Shown here: piece by piece, positions 2,690 to 64,000 of the stretch
Layout: each line of letters opens with the position of its first letter
Position numbering within the stretch: position 1 is the stretch's first letter
Origin: Octopus sinensis
Lineage: Eukaryota
DNA: 64,000 nucleotides
Reading direction: 5' to 3'
NCBI RefSeq assembly: GCF_006345805.1
Contig: NC_043004.1
Location: 53,506,001 to 53,570,000, forward strand
Notes under the pieces: generated by a model
Database searches by the model: none
What the model was told of the DNA's origin: nothing
Seen by the model: only the letters and a program-made list of their open reading frames with translations
Translations under genes and position numbers: made by a program

Positions 2690-3270
2690 AACCAGATAGA
2701 TGTAGATTTCAGGATCTACTCCATCTCAATCACAGGTTTTTTTAATTAATTTTTTAAACTAAACTGTTTAAAACGTCGAATACCGGTAGAATTTCTCACG
2801 TAGAACACGGTTTACGCCGAGCGCTTTTCATAAAATTCTGTATTTTAGAAGTTATTTCATGTTGAATTTGTCGTATTTGGGTAAATTCAACCAATCAACG
2901 ACGTGTATTCGGTTGAAGACAGCTACTGCTGTTTGCGATAGTAATCGAAGAGGAACAACCCCAAATGTAATTGGTAGAACAATATACATGTTCAATCTCA
3001 TGCGAATGCCTCGTATGTAGTTCTGCAAATTATATTTTGCTATACCGACCACACTGACGAGTTGCGGACATCTACGTAAGTGATTACGTAAGTGGTAACA
3101 ACGAAACAGGTTTGTGATTAATCTGTATATTTTGTTTCTTTTCATTTGTCTTGCTCACTTACGTCCTGGCGTTTTGCTAAATTTTCTTGAGAATATTCCA
3201 TAGGGAGTCAATTTCTAGAATAAGGGATGTCCTCTTAGTGGTCATCCCTCTTATATGTATGTAATATGTA
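2690..3270 (+). mobile_element. Non-coding HHR-bearing element between (TA)n tracts
   Basis: Contains the HHR at 3050-3116. Its 3' part (3165-3255) is homologous to the arm of the fold-back at 27342-27545. Confidence 0.65.
3050..3116 (+). ncRNA. Minimal type I hammerhead ribozyme
   Basis: CACA-CUGACGA-GUUG...(UACGUAA GUGA UUACGUA)...CAAC-GAAA-CAGG-U-U-UGUG. Intact core, G10.1-C11.1 pair, 4-bp stem I. Confidence 0.75.
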
Positions 3271-3479
3271 TATGTGCATATATATATATATACATATATT
3301 TATATATATATATATATTTGTATCGTTTTGTTTTGGTTTCGTCTATCTGGATGTTTTGTCGTCCCGTTTTGCGTTCTCATCCCATTTTGTATTGTATTTT
3401 ATTTTATATATATATATATATATATAAAACACCATCCGCAAAAAGTAGTCCTGAAATAAGCTTAGAAAAGTCCTTCTGT

Positions 3480-4029: not shown

Positions 4030-4418
4030 AGTATTAATAGTTATCGCCAAGCTAACAGGGCAGTGAAGAAAATAGGACGAATGCTGCCGTCAATTAACTC
4101 CAAGAGGCCATCGCTACAAGCTAGCTATGTGACACAGAAACCTGTGTCCATTACAACCTTTGAACAGGAGAGGTGAGCAGCGACGCCTGGTTGGTTCGGC
4201 TACTCTACATTGATGAGGAGCAATCACCCCGAAACTAATCTGTGGTTGATGAACCAACAAGTGGAAGCTGCTGACCTCCCCTGTTCGAAGGTTATAATGG
4301 ACACAGATTCGTGTGTCACATAGCTAGCTAGAGGCGATGGCTCCCTGGAGCTAATCAACGGAATCTTTCGACCTATTTTCCTGGACTGCCATGTTAGCTT
4401 GGCGATATATATTAATAC
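4030..4418 (+). mobile_element. Fold-back element with central hammerhead, in (CA)n
   Basis: Arms ~4030-4197 and ~4251-4418 are diverged reverse complements (atcgccaagctaaca / tgttagcttggcgat; ctagctatgtgacac / gtgtcacatagctag). Confidence 0.85.
4205..4245 (+). ncRNA. Minimal type I hammerhead (C3U variant)
   Basis: CUACA-UUGAUGA-GGAG(CAAUCA)CCCC-GAAA-CUAA-U-C-UGUGG. 5-bp stem I and an AUC cleavage triplet. Confidence 0.65.
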
Positions 4419-6667: not shown

Positions 6668-7012
6668 TTAGGAGCGGCTGTGTGGTAAGTAACTTGCTTA
6701 CGAACAACGTGGTTCCGGGTTCAGTCCCACTGCGTGGCACCTTGGACGAGTGTCTTCTACTATATGTGTGTGTGTGTGTGTGTGCATGTATGTGTGTGTA
6801 TATACGTGTGTGTCTTTGTTTGTCCTGCCAACATCGCTTGACAGCCGATGCTGGTGTGTTTACGTCCTCGTAACTTAGTGGTTCGGCAAAAGAGATCGAT
6901 AGGATATGGACTAGGCTTAGAAAGAATAATCCCTGGGATCGATTTGCTCGACTAAAGGCGGAGCTCCAGCATGGCCGCAGTCAAATGAATGAAACAAGTA
7001 AAAGATAAAAAA
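6668..7012 (+). mobile_element. tRNA-derived SINE family A (internally deleted)
   Basis: A/B-box head, gcaccttgg..agtgtcttctactat core, (TG)n and gaaacaagtaaaaga tail. Same family as 43038-43446. Confidence 0.88.
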
Positions 7013-7824
7013 GTAGGTCTGGCTTTTAGTAACGTTCAGTGAGTACGTGATTATGTTGTGAAGGTACATAACTTAATGTTTACGATGTGGTACTAATGAT
7101 CGCAAGAGTGTCATTTAATTCCAGGATACGGTGTTAAGTTGTATTCTTAAGCAACACACTTCCTTTCACGTTGTTTCACCCTACTCAACTGTAAATTAGT
7201 AACATTGCTACGTACTGACTTACCTTTCAGGAAGAATGCGGTAATCTCGATCATTTATACCCCGAGGAAACCGCGTACTCAACCATATGATTCCTAGTAG
7301 AGGCAGCAATATACATATATACATACACACACAAATACATGTGTCTGTGTGTGTTTGTATGTTTATGCTTACATGTTATATTTTGATAGGGACTTATTAG
7401 GTACTTTAGTTGAGGCACAAAGCCATTTCAGTATAGTCGGCACAGCTCGCAGTTGGGTGAATAAAAAAGCAAATAACAAGGATGTCCAGGTATCAGTGCA
7501 TACCTGGGCATTCTTGTTACTTATTTGCTTTATATATATGTGAGTGTGTATGCGTGTTTGTGTGTGTGTGTGGATTTGCGTGTGTATCTTTCCTTTCTCC
7601 ACTGTCCTGCTCCCTATCTATCTCTCTTTCTCCTTTCCTCCCGAAAAGCACAAAAATGTTCTCCTCTTCTGAACAAAACAAAAAAAAAAACACCCGATTC
7701 ACATGAAAAATGAGGAAACATTCTGTTTTTATTATTTGGGATTTTTGTCTTGAAGAGTTCGGTTAAACGTACGAAAGCGCTACAATATCTGTACACAACT
7801 TCAAACACTCTATACACACACACT

Positions 7825-10063: not shown

Positions 10064-10863
10064 GAGTGAGAGAGCAGTTCATGCCATCAAAGTGACACTG
10101 GGGTAAAATATACGAAGCCCAATCATGACTACCCGTCTGATAAAGGTACACCAGGCACATGCATCACAACCATATGTGCGCGACATGGTGATCTTATATC
10201 AAGATAAACAGCACATGACCTTGCAGGTGGGGCCCAGTTAGAATTTTCTTCAGGTTGAGTAGCCCATCCCGCTCAAACGGTCCCTGAATAAGGGTTGTTT
10301 AAGGATGTTGAAAGAACCACCCATGTTTCCAGAGGTGAACTATTCAAACCCCAAAGAATCCCTCTCAACACATGGCTATGATGCTCCCCCACTACTTCTG
10401 CTCGTGATCAGAGATGCACATATCGTCAGCCACTAAGGGACATGCTCAACTGGTTAAGGTCAAACAACTGACAAGCAAATCTGTGGTATTGAGCAGAATA
10501 TTTGCTGTAGCCCATCTTTTATACCAAGACAAAACAATGTACATGATAACACTTCCAATCAGTTAAGATCAGAAGCCATGAGAGCCACTGCCTGGTACTG
10601 CATCAGGGCATTGCTCCCCCACTACTTCTGCTCGTGATCAGAGATGCACATATCGTCAGCCACTAAGGGACATGCTCAACTGGTTAAGGTCAAATAACTG
10701 ACAAGCAAATCTGTGGTATTGAGCAGAATATTTGCTGTAGCCCATCTTTTATACCAAGACAAAACAATGTACATGATAACACTTCCAGTTAGTTAAGATC
10801 AGAAGCCTTGATAGCCGCTGCTTGGTACTGCATCAGGGCATGCCTGGTACTGCATCAGGGCAT
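10064..10863. mobile_element. (TAA)n-inserted ~555 bp interspersed repeat with nested end duplications
   Basis: Highly similar to 56451-57005. 10382-10611 is repeated at 10612-10841, plus a further 22-bp end repeat. (TTA)n on both sides. Confidence 0.88.
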
Positions 10864-14392: not shown

Positions 14393-14779
14393 GTGGAGGC
14401 GCAATGGCCCAGTGATTAGGGTGGCGGACTCGCGGTCGTAGGATCGCGGTTTCGATTCCCAGACCGGGCGTTGTGAATGTTTATTGAGCGAAAACACCTA
14501 AAGCTCCACGAGGCTCCGGCAGGGATGGTGGTGATCCCTGCTGTACTCTTTCACCACAACTTTCTCTCACTCTTACTTCCTGTTTCTGTTGTACCTGTAT
14601 TTCAAAGGGCCGGCCTTGTCACTCTCTGTGTCACGTTGAATATCCCCGAGAACTACGTTAAGGGTACACGTATCTGTGGAGTTCTCAGCCACTTAAACGT
14701 TTATTTTACGAGCAGGCTGTTCCGTTGATCGGATCAACCGGAACCCTCGTCGCCGTAACCGACGGAGTGCTTCCAAAAA
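14393..14779 (+). mobile_element. tRNA-derived SINE family B, full length, 12-bp TSD
   Basis: tggcccagtg A-box and ggtttcgattccc B-box. Flanked by acatcatccaat at 14381-14392 and 14780-14791. Confidence 0.9.
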
Positions 14780-20808: not shown

Positions 20809-22908
20809 CATCATCATCATCATCATCATTATTATTATCAATATTATTGTTATTGCTGTTGTTGTTTTTGTTGATGTTGTTGTTGCTGCTATTTATTTTT
20901 CATTAAATCACCATCTTATAGCCATGGCTATGTCTAATCATTTCTTCTCATTGCATAAGTCGTAGAAATATGTTTCTGTTTTCATTTTCATTACATAGAA
21001 TTTATTCTGAAGTGGTGCCTAATTATTTTCAAGCGAATACAACTAGCGCGTCGTATGATGAAATGAGCAGAGTTTGCGTCTGTATTTAGAATGTGATTCT
21101 ATCATATTTCTAGATTACATAAACAGTATAATTCTGATATCGTATATATTCTCAGAACAGTCTCAATATTTTACTGTTGTAAATGTTTCTTTTGTAACTT
21201 TTGTCTTTCACGCAACAGTGATTTTGAGAGTATTGTTATTGTGAGAGAGGGACTAAGGTATTTTAAAACCAGAACCTGTCCCGGGTTGTTAAAACTGACT
21301 ACTGTCTAAGTCTACTACATAATTAATCCTGTTTGGGAGTTAAACCCAGAACGGAAAGAGCCAAATCAAATATCTTAAGACATCCAGGATTGGTACATTT
21401 TTTTTTTATCGGACGTGGCATGTTTATTTGTAGTATAGGCACAAGAACTGAAATTTTGGTGGATTTATCTAGTCGATTACAACACCACAAGAATCAGCAC
21501 GTATCTACTATTTTACCGACACGAAAGTGTGATATGAATACTTTATACCGACGGAATTTGAATCCATAACGTTTCACTGGATGTAGTGCTGCTAAAAATC
21601 AGTACGAATGCTGATCTGCCAAGCAACCGCTTTTCGACTCTGCAATATTCAAGCGGGTCATTTGATCGAGTATTTGTAGTTCAAGTCCTGCTGTATAACT
21701 ACAATGACCACAGCCCCAAACACACTTTTTAAGCAATTCTACGCACATTTGGTCCTTCATCGGATAGATAAAGTTTTCATTTCACTTATGAAATGAACGT
21801 CAGCGGATTGAGAGAATTAATAGAAGGCCGGACTCCAAATCTTACGAAACTTATCTTTGGTAATTCTGGTGATGATAAAATATAGCAAGACAAGTACTAT
21901 ATCCGATGTCATCTCCTGAATGATTTTTGCCTTTCTCTTAACACAAACCTATTATTCCTATAAGCCAAAGATAGTGGAATGACAAAATCATTGAACTATT
22001 CGTTTCGCCTCTAAATATAGTGAGATAAAATTCCGTAAGTAAAATGTTACATTTCATCAATCTATACACTTTTGATAAAGTTACGTACCAGTCAGATATA
22101 TACTGCGTCGATAAGAATCGATATTTTCTTGTCTCACAAGTCTCTCAAAGAAAGGGTATTAATCCACTAGTCTCTGCTATATTTCTGCTAAAGGAGAGTA
22201 CATTCAGTAACCACTCTGAGCAAGACATGTCTCATTTCTGAAGGTTTATATGTGAAACACATAAATATATTTGCTACTTTACATTAGTGACAGCAAGAAA
22301 CAGTATGTCACTTCCAAACGGGTTTCAGAATGTTAACTTCGTTCTTAGAGAAATTTTCAATCAATATTTTCTTCCCACGAAAATTGTTTGCTTTTTCGCA
22401 TATGTCATTGATTAGCACTGGGTGATGTATGTTTCCTTCAGTATGTGTGTGTATGTGTGTGTGTGTGTGCGTGTGTCTGTGTTGAGAGAGACAGACAGAG
22501 AGAGCTTTATATGTATATATTTATAGATAACGCATGTATAATGTAAAAACATACAGATAGTGAAATGTGTTTGTGTTTGCGTGTATATATCCGAAGCATT
22601 AAATAGAGAGAGATGAATTATAATTTCAACAATTGAGGGTAAAATTAATTAATTATTAATCAATTTCACCAAGTATTCAGTATGTAAAGGGACCATTTAA
22701 GGCGAATTCAAATTATTACATTATATAAAAGGGCTTAGTAAAATAAATTACTTTGCCACATACTGAACTCATTAGAAATAGTAGCTAAAAAAACTTTTTT
22801 AAAACTATTTCTAATACTTAAAGAAAATCTCTCTCATATAGTGTTTGCTCAATTCAACTCACGAAAGTATGGGGGTAAAGACATTAAAAAATCAAATGCA
22901 AAGGTATT

Positions 22909-22960
22909 TGAGAACGTACGTTTCAAGATTAGTCAACTCGACATTTCTATCATCAGCTCA
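22909..22960 (-). ncRNA. Minimal type I hammerhead (inverted copy)
   Basis: Reverse complement of 23236-23287. Confidence 0.7.
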
Positions 22961-23235
22961 GAACTCCTTGGTTTGGATTTGAAAACACTGAAAGTGGGAG
23001 CATACCCTTTCGGCTTCTTATCGCTCTGAAGATCTGCTCGAAACTAACAGTACCAGCAAACCCAAAATATGCAAGCGAAGAATTTCTGCTGGTGGAAAGG
23101 GGAGAGCAGAAATTCTTCGCTTGCATATTTTGGGTTTGCTGGCACTATTAGTTTCGAGCAGATCTTCAGAAGCGATAAGAAGCCGAAAGGGTATGCTCCC
23201 ACTTTCAGTGTTTTCAAATCCAAACCAAGGAGTTC

Positions 23236-23287
23236 TGAGCTGATGATAGAAATGTCGAGTTGACTAATCTTGAAACGTACGTTCTCA
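23236..23287 (+). ncRNA. Minimal type I hammerhead
   Basis: UGAG-CUGAUGA-U-AGA..GUC(GAGUU)GAC..UCU-U-GAAA-CGUACG-U-U-CUCA. Stem I UGAG/CUCA, palindromic AACGUACGUU, U10.1-U11.1 in place of G-C. Confidence 0.72.
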
Positions 23288-23792
23288 AATAACCTTTGCA
23301 TTTGATTTTTTAATGTCTTTACCCCCATACTTTCGTGAGTTGAATTGAGCAAACACTATATGAGAGAGATTTTCTTTAAGTATTAGAAATAGTTTTAAAA
23401 AAGTTTTTTAGCTACTATTTCTAATGAGTTCAGTATGTGGCAAAGTAATTTATTTTACTAAGCCCTTTTATATAATGTAATAATTTGAATTCGCCTTAAA
23501 TGGTCCCTTTACATACTGAATACTTGGTGAAATTGATTAATAATAATTAATTTTACCCTCAATTGTTGAAATTATAATTCATCTCTCTCTATTTAATGCT
23601 TCGGATTTTACCGAAAAGCATACTGTTTACTGATTTTAACCCACGCTGGTGGAAAGGGGAGAGCAGAAATTCTTCGCTTGCATATTTTGGGTTTGCTGGC
23701 ACTGTTAGTTTCGAGCAGATCTTCAGAAGCGATAAGAAGCCGAAAGGGTATGCTCCCACTTTCAGTGTTTTCAAATCCAAACCAAGGAGTTC

Positions 23793-23844
23793 TGAGCTGA
23801 TGATAGAAATGTCGAGTTGACTAATCTTGAAACGTACGTTCTCA
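23793..23844 (+). ncRNA. Minimal type I hammerhead (second tandem unit)
   Basis: Identical to 23236-23287, 557 nt downstream. Confidence 0.72.
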
Positions 23845-24129
23845 AATAACCTTTGCATTTGATTTTTTAATGTCTTTACCCCCATACTTTCGTGAGTTGA
23901 ATGAGCAAACACTATATGAGAGAGATTTTCTTTAAGTATTAGAAATAGTTTAAAAAAAGTTTTTTAGCTACTATTTCTAATGAGTTCAGTATGTGGCAAA
24001 GTAATTTAATTTACTAAGCCCTTTTATATAATGTAATAATTTGAATTCGCCTTAAATGGTCCCTTTACATACTGAACACTTGGTGAAATTGATTAATAAT
24101 TAATTAATTTTACCCTCAATTGTTGAAAT

Positions 24130-24186
<57 letters not shown>

Positions 24187-27086: not shown

Positions 27087-27234
27087 ATTGTGGTGAAAGA
27101 GTACAGCAGGGATCACCAACCCCTGCCGGAGCCTCGTAGAGCTTTTAGGTGTTTTCGGTCAATAAACACACACAACGCCCGGTCTGAGAATCGAAACCGC
27201 GATCCTGCGACCGCGAGTCCGCTGCCCTAACCAC
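27087..27234 (-). mobile_element. SINE family B 5' part
   Basis: Reverse complement matches the first ~160 nt of 14393-14779. Confidence 0.85.
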
Positions 27235-27247
27235 TATATATAAAATA

Positions 27248-27545
27248 ATAAGGGTGAAAAATTGTTTATTAATTTGATGATTAATATCAGTGGTCTAGGA
27301 ATCAGAAAAATCTGAAGATTCAGAAAAATTATATTACATACATATAAGAGGGATGACCACTAAGTGGACATCCATTATGCTAGAAGTCACCCCCTATGGT
27401 CTTACTACTAAGGAAGGAATGTTCTCAAGAAAAGTTCTGGCGTTTGCTAACTTTTCTTGAGAACAATCCTTTCTTCGTGGTAAGACCATAGGGAGTCGAT
27501 TTCTAGCATAATGGATGTCCGGTTAGTGGTCATCGTTCTTATATA
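27248..27545 (-). mobile_element. Fold-back element end in (TA)n
   Basis: Imperfect palindrome 27342-27545 around the loop ctggcgtttgct. Homologous to 3165-3255 and 6158-6280. Confidence 0.8.
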
Positions 27546-27690
27546 TATATATATATTTATATTATATTGAGGGTACTACTATTCGTATATACCAACACGC
27601 TAAGAGGGACCAATGCGGTCAAAACTACTAAAAATAAACAAAATTTTACCGAATGCAAACCTTCAAAACATCATTTTAAAAAAGAATTCA

Positions 27691-27755
27691 GTTACATATC
27701 ACATGTGATTTCGCATTTAAATGCAGAATATGCATTTTATGTTCATCAGTGCAAC
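27691..27755 (-). ncRNA. Type I hammerhead
   Basis: GUUGCA-CUGAUGA-ACAU..AAAUGCA(UAUUC)UGCAUUU..AUGC-GAAA-UCACAUGUGA-U-A-UGUAAC. 6-bp stem I and palindromic AUCACAUGUGAU. Confidence 0.78.
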
Positions 27756-28188
27756 AAACTCAAGAAATATAAGAGAAAAACATAACATTACAAGCTCGAT
27801 AGCCAACCGTAGAATTCGTTGTAGCATGTCCGAATGTTTATCTTTACATATCTATGAAAATGGCGGGCTTATTCGCAATGCATTTCGGTACAAATTGTCT
27901 ATTCGGAATAAAAATTCAGTATTGAACTATTCCGGTGAAAAATATAAATTAACAATTGAGGATAAAATCTTTAAAAGAAATTATCAGTAGTCAGCGTGAA
28001 AAACCTCGTAAGAGAAAAAATCCGTAAATTCTTCCTCTTTGAAAATATTCATTTATATTATATTGAGGGTACTACTATTCGTAGATACCAACACGCTAAG
28101 AGGGACCAATGCGGTCAAAACTACTAAAAATAAACAAAATTTTACCGAATGCAAACCTTCAAAAAAAATAATTTAAAAAAAGTATTCA

Positions 28189-28253
28189 GTTACATATCAC
28201 CTGTGATTTCGCATTTAAATGCAGAATATGCATTTTATGTTCATCAGTGCAAC
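28189..28253 (-). ncRNA. Type I hammerhead (second tandem unit)
   Basis: Same as 27691-27755 with one change in the stem III loop. Confidence 0.78.
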
Positions 28254-28710
28254 AAACTCAAGAAATATATGATGTGTTTTGAAGGTTTGCATTCGGTAAA
28301 ATTTTGTTTATTTTTAGTAGTTTTGACCGCATTGGTCCCTCTTAGCGTGTTGGTATCTACGAATAGTAGTACCCTCAATATAATATAAATGAATATTTTC
28401 AAAGAGGAAGAATTTACGGATTTTTTCTCTTACGAGGTTTTTCACGCTGACTACTGATAATTTCTTTTAAAGATTTTATCCTCAATTGTTAATATATATA
28501 TATTTGTATATATATTTATAATATATATGTGTGTGTATGTATATATAAGCACGCACACACAATATATGTATATACATACACACACACAAACACACACACA
28601 CAGACACACACACATATATATATATATAAATATACATATATATATACATACATACATACATACATACATACATACATACATACATACATACATACATACA
28701 TACATACATA

Positions 28711-29399: not shown

Positions 29400-29992
29400 A
29401 AAAGAGTTAAATACAAAACAACGAGAGAAAAATGGAAAACAGGACAAGTAACACGGAGAACGACCCTTCATCATTTGTCGGTTGTCTATCTACTTCTCAT
29501 TTCCAGCATTCAACTACAATATGAGTCTCCTCTCTCATTGCTCACACGTGACCATCGTTCATCTTTCTTTTTTTCACATGACCACCTTTCTTTTCATGCA
29601 TGACATTCTAAGCACTTGAGTCTTCTATCCCTCAATCTCTTCTCTTTCTATCTATCTCTCTCTTCCATCTTTTCACTTTCCAAAGAAAATATTTCACCCT
29701 GCGTTCAATATATTCCTCTCGTTCTGGTCTAACGATCCTGCATATTCTTTTCGTTCGGTTTCTTTGTATGTTTCCACTGTTCTGTTTTTGTTCTCAACTT
29801 TGATCCTCCTTATATCCAACATTTTTGGGGAGTGGGGGTTATGGGAGTAACTGTCTTCGAAGTCTCATATTATCTTTGAATGGTCGAAATGATGAATAGA
29901 TAGACAGCCGACAACTGATGAAGGGCCTTTCTCCGTGTTACTTGTCGTGTTCTCCATTTTTCCGTCGTTGTTTTTTGTATTTAACTCGTTTG
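29400..29992. mobile_element. Diverged inverted-repeat element
   Basis: 29400-29528 is the reverse complement of 29862-29992 (acaagtaacacggagaa / ttctccgtgttacttgt). Confidence 0.75.
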
Positions 29993-33711: not shown

Positions 33712-33880
33712 GCTTTTACTTGCTAGAGCACCGCCTTGTGTCGAGCAAATCGACCCCAGGACTTATTCTTTGGAAGCCTAGTACTTATTCTATCGGTCTG
33801 TTTTGCCGAACCGCTAAGTTATGGGGACGTAAACACACCATCGGTTGTCAAGTGATGCTGGAGGGACAAACATATACACA
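33712..33880 (-). mobile_element. SINE family A 3' part
   Basis: Matches 48050-48250. Confidence 0.8.
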
Positions 33881-35611: not shown

Positions 35612-35717
35612 TATATATAACGGGAAGCTTTATGAAAATAGACAAAAGACGAAGGCAGGTGGAAAACAAACGAACAATTATATTAGTATGGCGCTCAGGA
35701 AATATAAATAAAACAAG

Positions 35718-35755
35718 TCTTTAACGTTTCGAGCCTACGCTCTTCAACAGAAAGA
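35718..35755 (-). ncRNA. Minimal type I hammerhead ribozyme in PLE 3' end (variant core)
   Basis: Minus strand: UCUUU-CUGUUGA-A-GAGC(GUAG)GCUC-GAAA-CG-UU-AAAGA. 5-bp stem I, 4-bp stem II, palindromic AACGUU. Core A6 is replaced by U. Confidence 0.65.
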
Positions 35756-35936
35756 TACACAGAGAGAAAAAAACACAGAAAGAAGGAGAGAAAAAAATGC
35801 GTGCAATAGCTAACGAATCAACATGGCGATCTGATTTCGGCCAGAGGTCAAAGATCAAACATGAGACGCGAGAGCGAAATAAGGGGAGATAATAGGGTTG
35901 ATAATAGGGTTGATAAAAGGGTTGAAGGACCAGCTA

Positions 35937-36395
35937 ATAGTGCGTAGGAGGGGTCTGGACGTGTGTATGTATAGGGTTGGTGTATGTATTAGTATGTATA
36001 AGGGTGTGTGTGTGTGTGTGTGTGTATGAGAGAGTATTAGTGCGTAGGATTGGTCTGGACGTGCGTATGTATGGGGTTGGTGTATGTATTAGTATGTATT
36101 AGTATGTATTAGTACGTATTAGTATGTATAAGTGTGGTGTGTGTGTGTGTGTGTGTGTATGAGAGAGTATTAGTGCGTAGGATTGGTCTGGACGTGCGTA
36201 TGTATGGGGTTGGTGTATGTATTAGTATGTATTAGTATGTATTAGTACGTATTAGTATGTATAAGTGTGTGTGTGTGTGTATGAGAGAGTATAAGTGCGT
36301 ATGAGGGGTCTGGACGTGTGTATGTATAGGGTTGGTGTATGTATTAGTATGTATTAGTACGTATTAGTATGTATTAGTTGGTGTATGTATTAGTA
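35937..36395. repeat. Tandem ~100-130 bp repeats in PLE 3' UTR
   Basis: Four copies beginning agtgcgta...gtctggacgtg, with nested gtattagtat 10-mers and (GT)n. Confidence 0.85.
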
Positions 36396-36402
36396 TGGCA
36401 CA

Positions 36403-37337
36403 TCATATATGATGTGATGTGTAAAGTCGTGTTGTGTAGTGAGGAGAAGAGGGGGAGGGGGGAGAAGGGGAGGGGAAGAAGAGGGGAGGAGAGGTGGGAA
36501 GAGGAGAGGATGGGGGAGAGATAGGATGGGGAGAATGAAGGGGAGGAGGGGGAGGAAGGAGGAAAGAGGGAGAGGGGGAGAGAGAAGGGGAGTGAGGGAG
36601 TGAGGGAGCAGAGGGAAGGGGAAGAGGGAAGGAGGGAGGGAGAAAGAGGGAAGAAGGGAAGGGGAGTAGGGGTGAAAGGATGAAGGACTGAAGAAGTAGG
36701 GGTCGGGGGGAAAGGATAGGTGAGGAGGGGGAGAGGGGGGTTAGATGAGGAGGGGGAGAGTTGAGACCAAATGGCGTATAAGAGCGAAGAGAGAAGATTA
36801 ATTCCTGTTCACGGCGCAAACGGGAATCCGGATGGCCTCTGTGTAAGGACAAACCGAACACAGATAGGTGTTGCAAGGAGTGACCGGTGGAGCGGAAATG
36901 GCGTGAGACCGGTGTGTCGTTCGCAAGGTGGATGTCACGAAGGTGTTCCGCGAACCGGTCAGCCAAGCGGCGTCCCGTTTGTCCGATGTACAAGGAATTG
37001 CAGAGAGAGCAAGAGATGCAATAGATAATATTGCTGGAGGTGCAGGTGAAGGAGTGGATGATGGGATAGGGTCGATGGTGGGTGCTAGTGAGGCGGGTGG
37101 TGTTGGAGAGGTAAGGGCAAGTGCGGCAACGTGGGCGGGAGCAGGGGAACGAGCCGGGTTGGGAGGTAGGGTCAGGGAAGGAGCTATGGACCAAAAGGTC
37201 TCGAAGGTTGTGGGCTCGTTTGAAAGAGGGGAGGGGTCGGTTAGGGAAGAGGTGTGAAGTGGACGGGTCGGACTGGAGATGACGGAAAGCTCGAAGAATG
37301 GTGCGTTGGAGACGTAGGGTCGTGGGGTGGTAAGTGA
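36403..37337 (-). CDS. PLE Cys-rich linker + GIY-YIG endonuclease (frameshifted continuation of RT)
   Basis: PCSRPRCRTC linker, then FTCTSSNIIYCISCSLCNSLYIGQTGRRLADRFAEH...VSRHF...EQELI...PFGLN. The frame then reads through low-complexity sequence to a stop at 36403. Confidence 0.9.
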
Positions 37338-38928
37338 GGGGAAAGGGAGGCGGGAGACTACAGGGCGGGTTAGGGGAGAGAGAGCAGATACACGGTCCAC
37401 GGACCGTGCTCTGGCAAGGGCGGTGTGGATAGTGGTGAGGGGGTATCCACGTAGGGTGAAGTGGTGAGCCATACGTTGAGACTGAGTCTCAAAGTCATGG
37501 TCGTCACTACAGAGCCTACGTAGACGGAGGAATTGGGAATAGGGGATGGAAAGCTTGGTGTGTTCTGGGTGGGAGGAAGAGAAGTTGAGGTATGAGTGTG
37601 AGTCTGTGTGTTTGTAGTGAATGGAGGTGGTAAGAGTGGAGTGAAGAATGCTAACCGAAATGTCGAGGAAGGAGACAGAGGTGTTGGAGATAGTGGAAGT
37701 GAAGTGGAGGGCTGGATGGAAAGATTGGACGAAAGAGAGGAAGGAATCTAGATGTTCGCGGGAGAGTGAGGTGGCACCGATAATGTCGTCGATGTAACGA
37801 CCATATAGTTCAGGAGTGGGACCAGTGAAATTAGAGAATATTTGGGCCTCAACATAGTCAACGAACAGGTTCGCATAGTTGGGGCCCATTCGCGTTCCCA
37901 TGGCCACTCCCGAGATCTGATGGTAGAACTCGCCCGCGAACGAGAAGCAGTTCAGAGTAAGGACAAGTTCGGCCAGACGAATGAGTGTGGAGGTGTCGGG
38001 TACAGGGGTAGAGCGGAGGTCAAGAAAGTGTCGAAGGGCCTGCAGTCCTTCGTGGTGAGGGATAACAGTATAGAGGCTTTGGATGTCCATAGTAAAAAGG
38101 ATTTTGGAGGAGCCAGGAGGAAAGGAGAAAGAGTTGAAAAGCCGGAGAGCATGGTTGGTATCGTGGATGTGGGAGGGAAGAGATGCCACTAGGGGGGCAA
38201 GGACACGGTCGAGGTATTTAGAGATGAGCTCCGTGGGGCAGTTACAGGCGAAGACGATGGGGCGGCCAGGGTGGTTGGGTTTATGGATTTTGGGGAGGAA
38301 GTAAATGGTAGGGGTACGTGGGGTTCGCACAATTAGGTTGGATGCGGTGCGGGGGAGACGGGAGGACGAGATGAGGTCGTGGACAGTAGAGGATACCGTC
38401 TGTTGGTAGCTACGTGTGGGGTTAGAGGGCAGAGGGGAATAGAAGGAGGTGTCATTGAGTTGGCGGAAAGCCTCGGCCCTATAGAGGTCCGCGCGCCACA
38501 CCACTACAGCTCCACCCTTGTCAGCCGGTTTGATGATAATGTCAGCGCGCCGTTGGAGGGAACGAAGAGCCAAGAGCTCAGCCGGGGAGATGTTGAGGCG
38601 GCGTTGGCGCCTGGAGAAGTTGAACCGCTCCAATGCACGCTGACAAGCGCCCGCGAAAAGATCCACTGCTAGGATCTGGCCAGGGGCAGGCGTCCACGGG
38701 GATGGTCGGCGGCCCAGGCCAGTGAAGCAGTCCTCTTCGTTGGGTGTGGGTGGCGAGTCATGGTAATGCGCACCCAACCAGACACGGCGCACATAGCTGT
38801 GGACATCAACTCGCGTCTGGAATTCCTTACAGGATGGAGTGAGGGGGATGAAACGCAGACCCCTACCAAGGACTGAGCGTTCAGCCGCAGAGAGGGGAAG
38901 ATCGGGGGGAATGGTAACAACAGACGGA
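37338..38928 (-). CDS. PLE reverse transcriptase (frame of ORF 36798..38792, open upstream of the annotated start)
   Basis: Motifs: LSAAERSVLGRGLRFIP (in frame upstream of the listed start), ADKGG, YFLPKIHK, GRPIV, MDIQSLYT, GVAMGTRMGPNYANLFV, RYIDD, SFLD, SSSHP, IPYSQFLRLRRLCS. Homology is lost after RLPFP at a G4 run (37338-37341). Confidence 0.93.
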
Positions 38929-39171
38929 AGTGGAGAAGGGGTGGGTGGAATAGAAGTAGGAGGGGTGGTAGGTCTCGTGGAGGTCTGAGGGGGAGGGTTG
39001 GGGAGGTGTGTGGGGTGGGGTTTGGGGGGGGCAGTAGGGTTAGGTGTAGGTGGATGGAGCCTATCGGGAGGGGAGAAGGGGTTGTAGGGAGGGGCAGTGG
39101 GGTTAGGTGTGGGTGGATGGAGCCTATCAGGAGGGGAGAAGGGTGGTGGAGGAGTTGGGGTAGTGGCGTCG

Positions 39172-39208
<37 letters not shown>

Positions 39209-42670: not shown

Positions 42671-43037
42671 GACATAATGACATAAACATACATAGAGTCT
42701 GTATTCTAAGCTACACTGACATGAGCTGATGACTGATCTAAAGAGTTTCACTTAATTTGTATTTATCCTTTAACCAATCACGCCACTTGAATGAGGCTCT
42801 CAACTATTGATGGGAAAACTTGTGACTCCTTAAGCTGCAACTCTAATGTGCATTGTATTTAGACGCTCTTCTAAACTTACACGCTGACTCGGTATCATCC
42901 TTGTTTTATCTGGTATACGATTCCTTTGTATTTTGCTTATCATCTATTTTAGACCAATCATATTAATAAACATTAATATACGTGATTAATAGAAAATTCA
43001 ATAGCATTCACGCTAGTAATTTCAAATATATATTCTA

Positions 43038-43446
43038 GGCGCAGGAGTGGCTGTGTGGTAAGTAGCTTGTTTACCAACCACATGCTTCCGGGTTCAGTCC
43101 CACTGCGTGGCACCTTGGGCAAGTGTCTTCTACTATAGCCTCGGGCCGACCAAAGCTTTGTGAGTGGATTTGGTAGACGGAAACTGAAAGAAGCCCGTCG
43201 TATATATGTATATATATGCGTGTGTGTGTTTGTGTGTCTATGTTCGTCCCCCTAGCATTGCTTGACAACCGATGCTGGTATGTTTATGTCCCCGTTACTT
43301 AGCGGTTCGGCAAAAGAGACCGATAGAATAAGTACTGGGCTTCCAAAAGAATAAGTCCCGGGGTCGAGTTGCTCGATTAAAGGCGGTGCTCCAGCATGGC
43401 CGCAGTCAAATGACTGAAACAAGTAAAAGAGTAAAAGAGAAAAGAG
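43038..43446 (+). mobile_element. tRNA-derived SINE family A, full length
   Basis: ggcgcaggagtggctgtgtggtaag A-box, gggttcagtccc B-box, core, internal (TA)/(TG) and (gtaaaaga)n tail. Confidence 0.92.
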
Positions 43447-45710: not shown

Positions 45711-45886
45711 ATATATATATATATAATATTATATATATATATATATTATATTAAATTAGAGATAAAACCACTATTAGGCAAATCAAACAATGAAAAAACT
45801 TAAGCCAATACATAAAATTAATTAATTTATATTATTTTAAATATATATCAAAAGTATTAAAAGTTTAATAAAGGTAATGAGTAAAA

Positions 45887-45955
45887 CACTACGATCGTTT
45901 CATGGCTGTCCAATTCGTAATAATTCGAGTTTTGGTTACAGTCAATCTTCAGGTA
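45887..45955 (-). ncRNA. Minimal type I hammerhead (mirror copy)
   Basis: Reverse complement of 46028-46096. Confidence 0.65.
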
Positions 45956-46027
45956 ATTGAAATATTTATCCTAACGAGGTTTAGCAATGAGCTCATTGCT
46001 AAACCTCGCTAAGATAAATATTTCAAT

Positions 46028-46096
46028 TACCTGAAGATTGACTGTAACCATAACTCGAATTATTACGAATTGGACAGCCATGAAACGATCGTAGTG
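46028..46096 (+). ncRNA. Minimal type I hammerhead
   Basis: UAC-CUGAAGA-U-UGACUGU..CCA...UGG-ACAGCCA-U-GAAA-CGAUCG-U-A-GUG. Palindromic ACGAUCGU, U10.1-U11.1, short stem I. Confidence 0.65.
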
Positions 46097-46487
46097 TTTT
46101 ACTCATTACCTTTTATTAAACTTTTAATACTTTTGATATATATTTAAAATAATATGAATTAATTAATTTTATGTATTGGCTTAAGTTTTTCATTGTTTGA
46201 TTTGCCTAATAGTGGTTTTATCTCTAATTTAATATAATATAATATTTTACAATAAAATTGGATTCAATCCTAAATCTGATTTTCCCTGTAAGTTGGATTT
46301 ATTCCCTAATATGTTATTATATAATATATATATATATATATATATAATATTATATATATATATATTATATATATGTATGTATATATGCATGCATGTATGT
46401 ATGTATGTATGTATGTATGTATGTATGTATGTATGTATGTATGTACGTATGTATGTACTTTCCGGATAGGTGTAAATGTGTATAGAA

Positions 46488-47460: not shown

Positions 47461-48040
47461 AAAGAAAAAGAAAATACGGGAGTGCTGTACTACAATCGCT
47501 TCATATTAAATATCTGATTGGAAATTAAAAAGCAAAAACTAGTTTATTGAAGTAAATTAACTGAAACAAAACATAAGTATTTCGTATTGAATATAAATTA
47601 GGTAATTTAATGTCTTAAATTTAAGTATCAAACGCACGCACAAACACACACACACCCACACATATGTATGTATATGCAAGTATCCATGTTCATGTATGTG
47701 TCTGTGTGCATGTATGCATGTATATATGTATTTATGTAGGCAGGTAGGCAGGTAGGTAGGTAGGTATGGATATATGTGTAGGTACTCATGCATATAGGCG
47801 TGTGCATGCTTCAACGTTTGATACAATGTTTTCAAAAGTGAAAAGAAGAAAAACTGCATTAGTGTATTTCTTAGATAATTATAGAGTTCTTTTCTTGTTT
47901 TCTAAACAATTAGGCATCATTTATAACTCACACTATTAATCATGACCCAATTGTGCCTGGCACATATTTCAATAATATAATATTATTTTCTACGATTTTG
48001 ATATTTTCTAGACGCTGCAATGGCGCTATAAAGTTTTCAA

Positions 48041-48450
48041 TCTTACTCTTTTACTTGTTTCAGTCATTTGACTGCGGCCATGCTGGAGCACCGCCTTTAG
48101 TCGAGCAAATCGACCCCGGGACTTATTCTTTGTAAGCCCAGTACTTATTCTATCGGTCTCTTTTGCCGAAACGCTAAGTGACGGGGACGTAAACACACCA
48201 GCATCGGTTGTCAAGCAATGCTAGGGGGACAAACACAGACACACAAACATATACACACACACTTATAATATATATATACATATATACGACAGGCTTCTTT
48301 CAGTTTCCGTCTACAAAATCCACTCACAAGGCTTTGGTCGGCCCGGGGTTATAGCAGAAGACACTTGCCCAAGATGCCACGCAGTGGGACTGAAACCGGA
48401 ACCATGTGGTTGGTTAGCAAGCTACATAGCACACAGCCACTCCTGCGCCT
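48041..48450 (-). mobile_element. SINE family A, full length
   Basis: Reverse complement of 43038-43446. Confidence 0.92.
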
Positions 48451-48902
48451 ATACAACGTTAGAATGTATGCTTTCTTTCTACTCTAGACCGTACAACGCA
48501 GAAATTGTATATGCAGTTGTGGAAGAATTCTACGGATATATCTGTTATGACTAATGTATTGGAAAACCATTTGCTGTTCTACTGGGGGTTCTTTAATTCC
48601 TCACGATAAATGACAAAATTTGATGTCTTTATAATAACCGACGTTTTATTTATTTGTACATCTAAGAAAACATTTGCTTTCCTTCTTCCTAGAGCTTTCT
48701 AGAAACGTATTTCTATTCCTTCACCCTTTCAGGAGAATAGAGCTTGATGTGCCGATTTGTGTGTATGTATGTATGTATGTATGTATGTATGTATGTATGT
48801 ATGTATGTATGTATGTATGTGTGTATGTATGTATGTAAGTATAGATGTATGCATATATATGTATGTATATATTTTTACATATGTGTCCGTTTGTATGTAT
48901 AT

Positions 48903-48969
<67 letters not shown>

Positions 48970-49119
48970 TAAATTAGAGATAAAACCACTATTAGGCAAA
49001 TCAAACACTCTAATGCACTAAATGTCAATTGCTAAAAAGCATTCGTGAAGTAAAATCATGTAGCAACACCGAATGGCGGTACCCCAGCATGGCCACAGCT
49101 CGTGCGCTGAAACTAAATG

Positions 49120-54109: not shown

Positions 54110-54347
54110 GGTATAAGTCAGTTACAAGTTGATTTTGACTGTATGTCTGCAAACATACGTTTTTCAGTAGACACTCCTGTTGTTTCCTCTGCATTCGGTT
54201 TTTGGATTACATCATCACATCAATTGTGAGACCAATATTTTCACACAACCTTTACGATAATTCATCTCGTATGAACACATTTAGATATCAACCATACTCT
54301 TATAATTATATACATATACATGTGAGCGTGTATGTAAATATGGTCAT

Positions 54348-54727
54348 AGGCGCAGGAGTGGCTGTGTGGTAAGTAGCTTGTTTGCCAACCACATGGTTCC
54401 ACGTTCACCTTGGGGAAGTGTCCTCTACTAGAGCCGCGGGCCGACCAAAGCCTTGTGAGTGGATTTGGTAGACGGAAACTAAAAAATGCCCGTCGTATAC
54501 ATATATATGTGTGTGTGTGTGTTTGTGTGTCTGTGTTTGTCCTCCCAGCATCGGTTGCATGTGTTTACGTCCCCGTAACGTAGCGGTTCGGCAAAACAGA
54601 CCTATAGAATAAGTACTAAGCTTACAAAAAATAAGTCCTGGGGGTCGATTTGCTCGACTAAAGGCGGTGCTCCAGCATGGCTACAGTCAAATGACTGAAA
54701 AAGTAAAAGAGTAAAAGATTAAAGAGT
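54348..54727 (+). mobile_element. SINE family A
   Basis: Colinear with 43038-43446. Confidence 0.9.
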
Positions 54728-55820: not shown

Positions 55821-55934
55821 GGAGAGAGAGGGAGAGCGAGGTAGAGAGAGAGATGCATTATATATATATATATCCACTTGGTGAAATTAAGGATTATTTC
55901 TAAATTAATTAATTAATTTCACCCTTTATTATTG

Positions 55935-55990
<56 letters not shown>

Positions 55991-56450: not shown

Positions 56451-57005
56451 GAGTGAGAGAGCAGTTCATGCCATCAAAGTGACACTGGGGTAAAATATAC
56501 GAAGCCCAATATACCCATCATGACTACCCGTCTGTAAGTGTACATTAGGCACATGCATCACAACCATATGTGCGCGACATGGTGATCTCATAAAAAGATA
56601 AACAGGACTTGATCTTGCAGGTGGGGCCCAGTTAGAATTTTCTTCTGGTTGAGTAGCCCATCCCGCTCAAAAGGTCCCTGAATAAGGGTTGTTTAAGGAT
56701 GTTGAAAGAACCACCCATGTTTCCAGAGGTGAATTATTGAAACCCTAAAGAATCCCTCTCAACACATGGTTATGATGCTCCCCCACTGCTTCTGCTCGTG
56801 ATCAGAGATGCACATATCGTCAGCCACTAAGGGACATGCTCGACTGGTTAAAGTCAAACAACTGACAAGCAAATCTGTGGTATTGAGCAGAATATTTGCT
56901 GTAGCCCATCTTTTATACCAAGACAAAACAATGTACATGATAACACTTCCAATCAGTTAAGATCAGAAGCCATGAGAGCCACTGACTGATACTGCATCAG
57001 GGCAT
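56451..57005. mobile_element. (TAA)n-inserted ~555 bp interspersed repeat
   Basis: Second copy of 10064-10611 with identical termini and (TTA)n flanks. Confidence 0.88.
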
Positions 57006-57032
57006 TTATTGTTATTATTATTATTATTATTA

Positions 57033-57244: not shown

Positions 57245-57369
57245 TCACTGCCTGGGATCAAACCCAGGTTCAAATTTCCCCAAAACACCTGAACAAACCA
57301 GATGTGGACAAATATCCGTGAAATGTAAATAATGTACATAATTCCTCATCTCTTAAATATGGAACTGTA

Positions 57370-57570
57370 TTCTTTTACTTGTCTCAGTCATTTGACTGTG
57401 GTCAAGACGGAGCACCGCCTTTAGTCGAACAAATCGATCCCAAGACTTTTTCTTTTTAAGTCTAGTACTTATTCTATCGGCTTCTTTTCTCGAACCGCAA
57501 AGTTACGGAGACGTAGACACACAATCCTCGGCTGTCAAGTGATCTTGGGAGCGACAAACACAGACACGCA
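57370..57570 (-). mobile_element. SINE family A 3' part
   Basis: Diverged match to 48045-48245. Confidence 0.8.
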
Positions 57571-58895: not shown

Positions 58896-58955
<60 letters not shown>

Positions 58956-58957
<2 letters not shown>

Positions 58958-59095
58958 GACGGGCTCCATCCGGTTTCCGCCAACCAAATCTAGTCACAAG
59001 GCTTTCGTCGGCCTGAGGTTATAGTAGAAGACACTTACCGAAGATGCCGCGCAGTGAGAATGAACACGGAACCATGTGGTTTGTAAGCAAGCTAC
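58956..59095 (-). mobile_element. SINE family A 5' part
   Basis: Matches 48285-48425. Confidence 0.8.
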
Positions 59096-59987
59096 TTTAT
59101 TTCATAAAATTGTCATATAGAGAGTACAAAGATTGTGTAGCTTTGCTGGCTGGACAACCACATTAATGAATGAAAATGAAATAAAATGAATAAATGAGAG
59201 ACGAAACCCAACGCCCGCCGATTGAATTTTTCTCCAAAACATATTTTCTTTTTTAAAAAACCAATATGGATTTTCAAACCTCTTACAAGAAGGAGACACT
59301 AAAGCCTCTTACTTAACACGTTTTTTTTTAAACACACAATTGAGGTTATAAACCACTACAAATAATACAATAAGATGATGTTTCAAACCCTTTAACGAGA
59401 CTTTTTCACCTCCCAATCATCGATATATTCATCATTATCTTCAATGCCGCTTGAGTACCTGTATCCCGCCATTACCCATGCCTCACTCATGTAGGACATG
59501 TATGTCGTGTAAGGGCCACCCGGCCATATGCGACACTCCTCCCCAAATCCTTTAAGCCTTTCCCACAAGGGAAACCTTATGACCTCTACAGCTATCTGCG
59601 GAGGCCATTCGGGATCCCGTGTGAAGGGCATATCTACTGTCTCTTTATGTTCTTCTACTATTTTCCCCCTCCCCGTCTTTGTAGTAAAAGATAATTAATT
59701 CATCATATTTAAGGGTTGGGGTCGTTTCTTCCACCCTGGGTGGCACAACTTTGGGACATGCAGACGGCACATCATCTCCCCCCTGAGATTACCCGTTTTT
59801 CTTTCTTTTTTTTCTTCCTGACTTCGGGAGAGTGGAGCTCTTCTGCTTTGTCCGAAGTCTCTCCCCCACCTCGCGAGCCTTAGGGTCCTTCTGCAGGCAA
59901 CTATTGTTGCCCGCCTTCTTCCTTTTTAATCCTTTTTGGGTTGAGGAGGCATTAACATAGCTAGAACCGGTAGGATTATCTGTAGGA

Positions 59988-63721: not shown

Positions 63722-64000
63722 CTTTTTCTTGCGCCCTTTTCAAACCTAGCCAGGCTCATGGGCCCGGTTTTCCGGTTTCTGTGGCGTATGTGATCCCCCC
63801 ACTGGACGGGACGCCAATCCATCACAGCGTTACTCAACAAACAGGAAGGAAGAGTGAGAGAAACTTGGGGCGAAAAAGTACAACAGGGGTTGCCACCCTC
63901 ACCTCACTGCTAGAGCCTCGTGGAGCTTTAGGTGTATTCGCTCAGTAAACACACACATAACGTCCAGTCAGGGAATCGAAACCGCGATCCTCCGAACGCG
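63722..64000 (-). mobile_element. SINE with family B head/body and a V-domain-like tail (runs off window end)
   Basis: 63840-64000 matches the reverse complement of 14430-14590. It continues as gatggattggcgtcccgtccag...catgagcctggctagg. Confidence 0.8.

Follow-up and report, generated by a model that had tools for sequence, protein, structure and literature searches.

A multicopy non-coding hammerhead repeat in Octopus sinensis with the insertion layout of Penelope-like elements

Introduction

Published insertions of Penelope-like elements (PLEs), as described in the available text of two reports (PMC8557442, PMC3846280), consist of a partial tandem with an adjacent inverted, 5'-truncated copy, optionally with a tail on one end, and are biased towards microsatellites. 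For the PLE of Anolis, the purified protein is described as cutting and extending both strands of AT-rich DNA, with reverse transcription starting at two internal sites and with hammerhead cleavage being dispensable (PMC11167929). Hammerhead motifs have also been described in Schistosoma, where motif pairs lie 100-700 bp apart on opposite strands (PMC4209133).

Non-LTR retrozymes are described as ORF-less tandem units with type I hammerheads, with circles reported in coral, mussel and axolotl (PMC7229834), and have been argued to be non-autonomous PLE derivatives (bioRxiv 10.64898/2026.07.22.740005). As given in the text of the latter account, a retrozyme comprises 2 or more units in succession, all with a complete type I hammerhead whose fold lies below -5 kcal/mol, and dimers cleaved in 1 of 9 cases tested. 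For Octopus vulgaris, 31 recently active Penelope-like families have been reported, in a paper whose accessible text never mentions hammerheads or ribozymes (PMC13282606). Here we describe a hammerhead-bearing repeat of Octopus sinensis within a 64,000-nt stretch of contig NC_043004.1, called the window throughout, and weigh the ways in which it could have been inserted.

Results

Head-to-head copies of a 498-nt repeat lie between (TA)n tracts

The window is AT-rich and dense in microsatellites. Comparison of the window with itself gave a unit length of 496-498 nt, and the parts of the element are placed as follows.

27540..27554, no strand: left (TA)n target
27555..28269 (715 nt), minus strand: direct arm, holding 1.44 tandem copies of a non-coding 498-nt repeat with hammerheads
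28173..28268, no strand: unpaired spacer of 96 nt separating the inverted arms and holding the second hammerhead (HHR2)
28269..28493, plus strand: inverted, 5'-truncated copy of 225 nt, head-to-head with the direct arm
28494..28532, no strand: right TA-rich target or microsatellite
27951..27967, minus strand, and also 28474-28490, plus strand: 3'-terminal 17-mer around CCTCAAT
27566..27572, minus strand, with copies at 28062-28068 (minus) and 28373-28379 (plus): second CCTCAAT motif, lying in the unit 107 nt upstream of the terminal motif

Along the minus strand, (TA)n is followed by the inverted copy, 16 nt, HHR2, a full unit, HHR1, 142 nt and (TA)n again, with the two hammerhead cores spaced 498 nt apart (C3 at 27749 and 28247). 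The direct repeat is 95% identical between 27549-27774 and 28045-28272, and comparison of the two tandem units over 222 columns found 7 mismatches and 2 gap columns. The inverted arm (28269-28493) mirrors 28172-27948, exactly over 217 nt, and overlaps the direct arm by a single nucleotide at the junction; it begins 22 nt downstream of the hammerhead cut and terminates at the 3' end of the family, stopping no more than 6 nt from position 27942. A first-pass annotation of this DNA had described a ~497-bp tandem of ~1.4 units, with hammerheads 498 nt apart, an inverted copy of ~230 bp and (TA)n flanks, and its coordinates and counts hold, at 1.44 units and 225 nt.

The outer ends of both arms enter (TA)n at AT-rich positions of the unit, and no target-site duplication is discernible inside the (TA)n at this element. 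The direct arm finishes in (TA)n 11 nt beyond the second CCTCAAT, such that the 3' ends of the two arms are offset by 103 nt, the longer end being on the inverted arm. The 498-nt unit contains no ORF or coding remnant, its longest stop-free run on the sense strand being 44 codons. A separate hairpin repeat of ~230 bp with TA-rich ends (27327-27558; partial second copy at 3163-3273) adjoins the left (TA)n, and is either MITE-like or another head-to-head insertion.

Both tandem units carry a predicted type I hammerhead

27691..27755, minus strand: HHR1, type I hammerhead with an AUA triplet, predicted cut between 27697 and 27696
28189..28253, minus strand: HHR2, like HHR1 except for U>G in loop III and a weaker stem I extension; predicted cut between 28195 and 28194
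27697..28194, minus strand: cut-to-cut monomer, a predicted linear or circular RNA of 498 nt and about 31% GC

The core is intact in both motifs (C3 U4 G5 A6 N7 G8 A9, G12 A13 A14 A15.1 and U16.1 H17, with three helices). Both have the 6-bp stem I that had been read at first pass, one of its pairs being G-U, a stem II of 3 bp, an internal loop and 7 bp, and a stem III of 3 bp with a tetraloop; in HHR1, stem I can be extended to 12 bp over a 1-nt bulge (27684-27761). Position 10.1.11.1 is A.C in both motifs, the G10.1-C11.1 pair being absent at the locus. Across the 64 kb, a type I descriptor returned 5 motifs, 2 here and 3 in another element of the window (the first element, described below), while loose hits averaged 0.03 over 100 locally shuffled windows, none of which had a strict hit. 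Rfam had 0 hits on the window at the gathering threshold; 8 matches at E<=10 (snoRNA, miRNA, plastid UTR) included no hammerhead family and were discarded as being at chance level, far below threshold.

Each hammerhead fold has an energy of -8.2 kcal/mol, lying above the minimum-energy fold by 2.6 kcal/mol in HHR1 and 5.8 kcal/mol in HHR2. Stem III had been described at first pass as a 12-nt palindrome long enough to fold as a monomer. The palindrome is perfect in HHR1 and interrupted in HHR2 by the U>G change in the loop. Monomeric folding is marginal, the hairpin having an energy of +0.4 kcal/mol and the duplex being favoured at -15.8 kcal/mol (HHR1/HHR1) or -11.4 kcal/mol (HHR1/HHR2). Given the A.C at 10.1.11.1, a hammerhead fold above the minimum, a weak stem III hairpin and a palindrome that can pair between copies, these models favour a ribozyme that acts as a dimer or with help from a protein over one that is efficient as a monomer. 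The sense monomer as a whole folds better than its shuffles (z -3.73, 0 of 100 shuffles as good), and the antisense monomer gave z -1.44 with 10 of 100 shuffles as good. Folded as a circle, the monomer is 62% paired, and its ends re-form stem I.

The unit belongs to a multicopy family

The unit or a part of it is present in 20 of 24 listed public sequencing runs (11 studies, six organisms; contigs throughout). Four of the 24 (labelled X1, X3, X5 and X20) were aligned contig by contig to one unit, 27640-28135, onto which 738, 1161, 66 and 1 contigs were placed, respectively, over a range of identities; the run X20 contained a small share of words (0.14). Summed contig depths reach about 0.4-3.4 x 10^5 in X1, a figure that is not a copy number. 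The tandem joint, from 28135 to 27640, recurs in X1, X3 and X20, while no contig among those listed covers the whole unit. Exact-pattern scans found no matches in metagenome contigs or viral contigs. The earlier suggestion that the locus is not a chance duplication is thus borne out by the unit being a multicopy family.

Among the loose ends listed, family ends at 27942 reading into (TA)n were found in at least 13 contigs of X1 and at least 5 of X5, and this position at (TA)n marks the usual 3' end of the family. The second CCTCAAT site is not among the 18 loose ends listed, with 153 more in existence. The share of contigs running on into unlike sequence is 0-0.03, with examples in X5 at 28092 and 28105.

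A sense-strand G10.1 corresponds to T>C at 27742, which accounts for 16% of depth in X1, 54% in X3, 20% in X5 and 0% in X20. Both G10.1 and A10.1 are therefore common in the family, and A10.1 is not a private defect of this locus; its description at first pass as a replacement of G10.1 agrees with the family copies that carry G10.1. The core bases were changed by none of the 15 substitutions and 6 indels listed among variants with at least 5% of depth, and of the listed hammerhead variants one restores G10.1-C11.1 and two lie at the internal loop of stem II. Overall, the hammerhead varies no less than the remainder of the unit does: 3 changes are listed for its 65 nt and 17 changed places for the other 431 nt. 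The one run recorded as RNA contributed a single 250-nt contig, at a depth of 2.2, that crosses the cut site; X5, only presumed to be RNA, was left out as evidence of expression. Contig starts and ends do not pile up, in data where contigs cannot reveal ends, strand or circles. The junction of a 498-nt circle would read the same as the genomic tandem.

The first element of the window has the same layout and 3' terminus

22589..24133, plus strand: first element, 557-nt unit with three hammerhead motifs and an inverted arm at 22589-23090

The first element forms a near-perfect palindrome of 1 kb whose arms overlap by 3 nt at the junction; a tail of about 30 nt is present at its inverted end and lacking at the other. 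Its hammerheads have U.U at 10.1.11.1, a GUU triplet and a palindromic stem III. The unit bodies of the two elements align no better than shuffles, 32 of 300 of which reach the same score, but a terminal 17-mer is common to both at 16 of 17 positions, a match that arose in 1 of 20000 shuffled units; this 17-mer was chosen after it had been seen, but it is terminal in both elements. A second apparent common block (TGGTCCCT...TTGGT...CCCTCAAT) was not significant, being equalled in 456 of 2000 shuffles, so we claim shared sequence for the terminal 17-mer only. In both elements the inverted arm extends further 3' than the direct arm.

The two elements had been called unrelated, with a shared mechanism proposed from their like architecture. 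While the former description fits the bodies, which cannot be aligned above chance, it does not extend to the common 3' terminus; the latter proposal gains support, as the layout is the published PLE insertion pattern. Between two (TA)n tracts at 55876-55950 lies a short and diverged piece left from the 3' end of the first element.

The window also contains a frameshifted Penelope-like element and other repeats

35620..39206, minus strand: frameshifted PLE with RT and GIY-YIG domains and a CX4CxxC linker, between (TA)n tracts

The RT domain of this element matches RVT_1 at E 2.8e-07 and the GIY-YIG domain at E 0.0023, the latter below the Pfam cut-off; the nearest protein-atlas clusters are animal RT proteins, and the CX4CxxC linker fits Neptune or Nematis as these are described in PMC8557442. 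As read from these matches, the element shows that PLE machinery has been present in this DNA. It is the only PLE in the window and was considered as a helper; with no blastn or tblastn match to either unit, it cannot be assigned that role. It also carries a variant minimal hammerhead at ~35715-35760 (CUGUUGA core) and, in its 3' region, tandem repeats of 122-133 bp (35982-36382).

Several other repeats were noted in the window. A third family, at 45745-46245, comprises two ~250-nt copies placed head-to-head as a 500-bp palindrome with TA-rich flanks; each arm has a CUGAAGA half-core, without a convincing hammerhead, and an end fragment at 48965-49007 abuts (TA)n. An imperfect 390-bp palindrome (4031-4418) has a hammerhead-like motif (UUGAUGA...GAAA) near its centre, at ~4210-4240. 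The repeat at 10064-10841 contains a 230-bp tandem duplication ending in (TTA)n and no convincing hammerhead, and has a second, 95% identical copy at 56451-57006. A 560-bp element at 29415-29974 with inverted ends of 86-114 bp (85% identical) is MITE-like. One SINE-like family occurs at 6670-7013, 33721-33869, 43036-43446, 48034-48452, 54346-54726, 57368-57557 and 58945-59097, and another is dispersed at 14411-14585, 27088-27235 and 63839-64000.

Discussion

Proposed insertion mechanism and alternatives

Taken together, the layout, the family and the hammerheads make it probable, as judged from sequence, that the element is a non-autonomous PLE, i.e. a non-LTR retrozyme or mini-PLE, inserted in trans by a PLE RT-endonuclease. 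In such an insertion, a donor tandem would be transcribed on the hammerhead-sense strand, and a PLE-encoded RT/GIY-YIG protein would bind the RNA at a 3' signal of which the CCTCAAT 17-mer is part, as the common terminus of the two elements suggests. The protein would then nick both strands of a (TA)n target, with each 3'-OH priming cDNA inside the RNA, as occurs in vitro with another PLE. One cDNA would start at the family end and run for 225 nt, with 22 nt left to the hammerhead cut. The second would start from the second CCTCAAT, about 105 nt further upstream, and run for 715 nt through two cut sites. Since the long cDNA passes both sites, its template would have been an uncut multimer, a circle, or two templates between which synthesis switched. 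The two cDNAs would finally be joined head-to-head with a 1-nt overlap. The hammerhead itself probably cuts weakly, or as a dimer through the palindromic stem III, releasing 498-nt monomers or circles.

Several observations sit less comfortably with this scheme. The one PLE of the window matches neither unit, no target-site duplication can be discerned in the (TA)n, the hammerhead folds lie 2.6 and 5.8 kcal/mol above the minimum, the motif varies no less than the remainder of the unit, and a single contig is all that the RNA run offers. The tail of the first element, about 30 nt, is of the classic kind. The 103-nt offset between the arm ends here exceeds the 30-40 bp of a PLE tail, and A10.1.C11.1 breaks a pair described as highly conserved in PLE hammerheads (PMC4209133). 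With an offset of this length, and with the second motif absent among the loose ends listed, the left end of the direct arm may be a second priming site or may result from a later deletion.

Within the same element class, the inverted arm could have come from fold-back (self-priming) of the first cDNA instead of from a second target primer, a route we regard as possible though not probable. The sequence of the arm is internal to the direct arm and agrees with the adjacent unit at every position over 217 nt, the junction overlap of the first element is 3 nt, and self-priming has been proposed for PLE inversions in the account given in PMC3846280. Here, however, the overlap is only 1 nt and the spacer 96 nt, the first 8 nt of the arm match an allele of the family and not the adjacent unit, and the arm finishes where family copies usually meet (TA)n, as expected of a primed start. 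We therefore favour two target primers over fold-back, to a moderate degree. The tandem, for its part, might have arisen by rolling reverse transcription on a single 498-nt RNA circle, as in the retrozyme model described in PMC7229834, and to this reading we lend a similarly limited credence. A cDNA that reads through two cut sites, a well self-paired monomer whose ends re-form stem I, and the RNA-library contig across the cut site are all compatible with a circle, but over 222 columns the units differ at 7 sites and by a 2-nt indel, against 217 identical nt between the arms, and other family members carry both indel alleles and the HHR2 allele of loop III, fitting two template units. These differences carry caveats of their own: the indel is slippage-prone, and five of them fall within about 20 nt. 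The differences of the first element are distributed evenly among its three copies, which fits one template. As far as these alleles can be read, the balance leans towards two different template units over one circle.

Other readings would deny the unit independent mobility or mobility altogether. The repeat could be nothing more than the pLTRs, or terminal repeats, that an autonomous PLE left behind after 5' truncation or internal deletion; Xenopus retrozymes are described as homologous to PLE pLTRs (bioRxiv 10.64898/2026.07.22.740005), and some contigs do exit the unit into other sequence, such as those of X5 at 28092 and 28105. Such exits nevertheless make up a share of only 0-0.03, the ORF-less tandem joint is found in three runs, and one hammerhead follows the other at 498 nt without a coding remnant, leaving this origin improbable. 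Least plausible of all, and in our judgement very improbable, is a local duplication and inversion of single-copy sequence, by replication error or as an assembly artefact, around a fortuitous hammerhead-like motif. Long inverted repeats are error-prone in assemblies, Rfam recorded no hammerhead, and none of the listed pieces spans the whole unit; yet a single copy is contradicted by the G10.1 allele and by variant contigs that number in the hundreds per run, a strict hammerhead appeared in 0 of 100 shuffles, and a second element has the same layout and terminus.

Having preferred a non-autonomous PLE primed on both target strands, we put forward a broader reading more tentatively, as one that may well prove wrong: that several hammerhead mini-elements of this genome, otherwise unrelated, have one short 3' signal in common, the CCTCAAT 17-mer, which a single helper PLE recognises; that they insert by two-strand priming from uncut multimeric RNA and not from circles; and that the attenuated A10.1.C11.1 hammerhead spreads at least as well as the canonical one. 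If true, this would offer evidence, at the level of insertions, on the way in which retrozymes of animals move; it would also define a cis signal used by a PLE protein for trans-mobilisation, and set up a natural test of whether PLEs benefit from their hammerhead or simply carry it along.

Significance of the locus

On its sequence, the element is a common, protein-free mobile repeat with a predicted self-cutting RNA motif, of a class already known. The novelty implied at first pass was accordingly too high, the mechanism class having been described before, and the locus alone is ordinary. We found no literature on the 498-nt family, which subscription journals, Repbase/Dfam or supplements may hold. 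The value of the locus lies in being a clean, young specimen that links the retrozyme and PLE literatures. In the text of the retrozyme papers, PLE mobilisation is argued from co-occurrence and pLTR homology (PMC7229834, bioRxiv 10.64898/2026.07.22.740005), and in the present copy an ORF-less unit with hammerheads bears the marks of PLE insertion. How the tandem and inverted structures of PLEs arise is named as open in PMC8557442; with a large family and allele differences between tandem units, circle versus multimer and two primers versus fold-back become countable genome-wide.

Comparison with known systems

Compared by description, the unit resembles the pDo500 satellite of Dolichopoda cave crickets (PMC2837043) in its length (~500 bp) and its single hammerhead; single- and double-hammerhead cleavage are proposed there, and the hammerhead is often not the lowest-energy fold, as here. 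pDo500 is described as satellite DNA, in contrast to the short dispersed insertion with an inverted arm seen at this locus.

With the minimal hammerheads of PLEs, as described in PMC4209133, our motifs share a long helix II, a palindromic helix III and, by expectation, activity as dimers with low cleavage. They differ in having no extra base between 9 and 10.1 and, at this locus, A.C in place of G10.1-C11.1, while helix I (6-12 bp) and helix III (3 bp and loop) are longer than in that description.

Animal non-LTR retrozymes, as described by Cervera and de la Pena 2020 (PMC7229834) and by Li, Clavereau and Pollet 2026, are like the present element in being ORF-less tandems of low GC with one type I hammerhead per unit. 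By the sequence traits of retrozymes, the element has two type I hammerheads (-8.2 kcal/mol each), is non-coding, multicopy and self-paired, has a unit in the size class of tens to hundreds of nt, and has a GC content of 31%, under the 45% limit. Its 498 nt lie inside the 51-972 bp range of bioRxiv 10.64898/2026.07.22.740005 and above the 170-400 nt of PMC7229834. Mussel retrozyme hammerheads, as described, also lack most of the loop 1-loop 2 contact bases, like the unit here. On the other hand, A10.1.C11.1 in both motifs, a stem II with an internal loop and a 12-nt palindromic stem III set the element apart from the animal retrozymes described, as do the 5' inverted arm and (TA)n ends from those in the main text of both papers (PMC7229834, bioRxiv 10.64898/2026.07.22.740005).

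The element is not an autonomous PLE, an identity that was rejected as no RT/GIY-YIG ORF lies between the repeats; besides this missing ORF, it departs from the PLE insertions described in an end offset of 103 nt versus 30-40 bp and in having no visible target-site duplication. In its layout, it is like the insertions of endonuclease-containing PLEs (Penelope/Poseidon, Neptune and Naiad) as these are described (PMC8557442, PMC3846280, PMC11167929), with a partial tandem and an adjacent head-to-head, inverted, 5'-truncated copy. It is also like them in its AT-rich or (TA)n target, in its two 3' ends, of which the longer is on the inverted arm, and in a hammerhead placed upstream of the 3' end.
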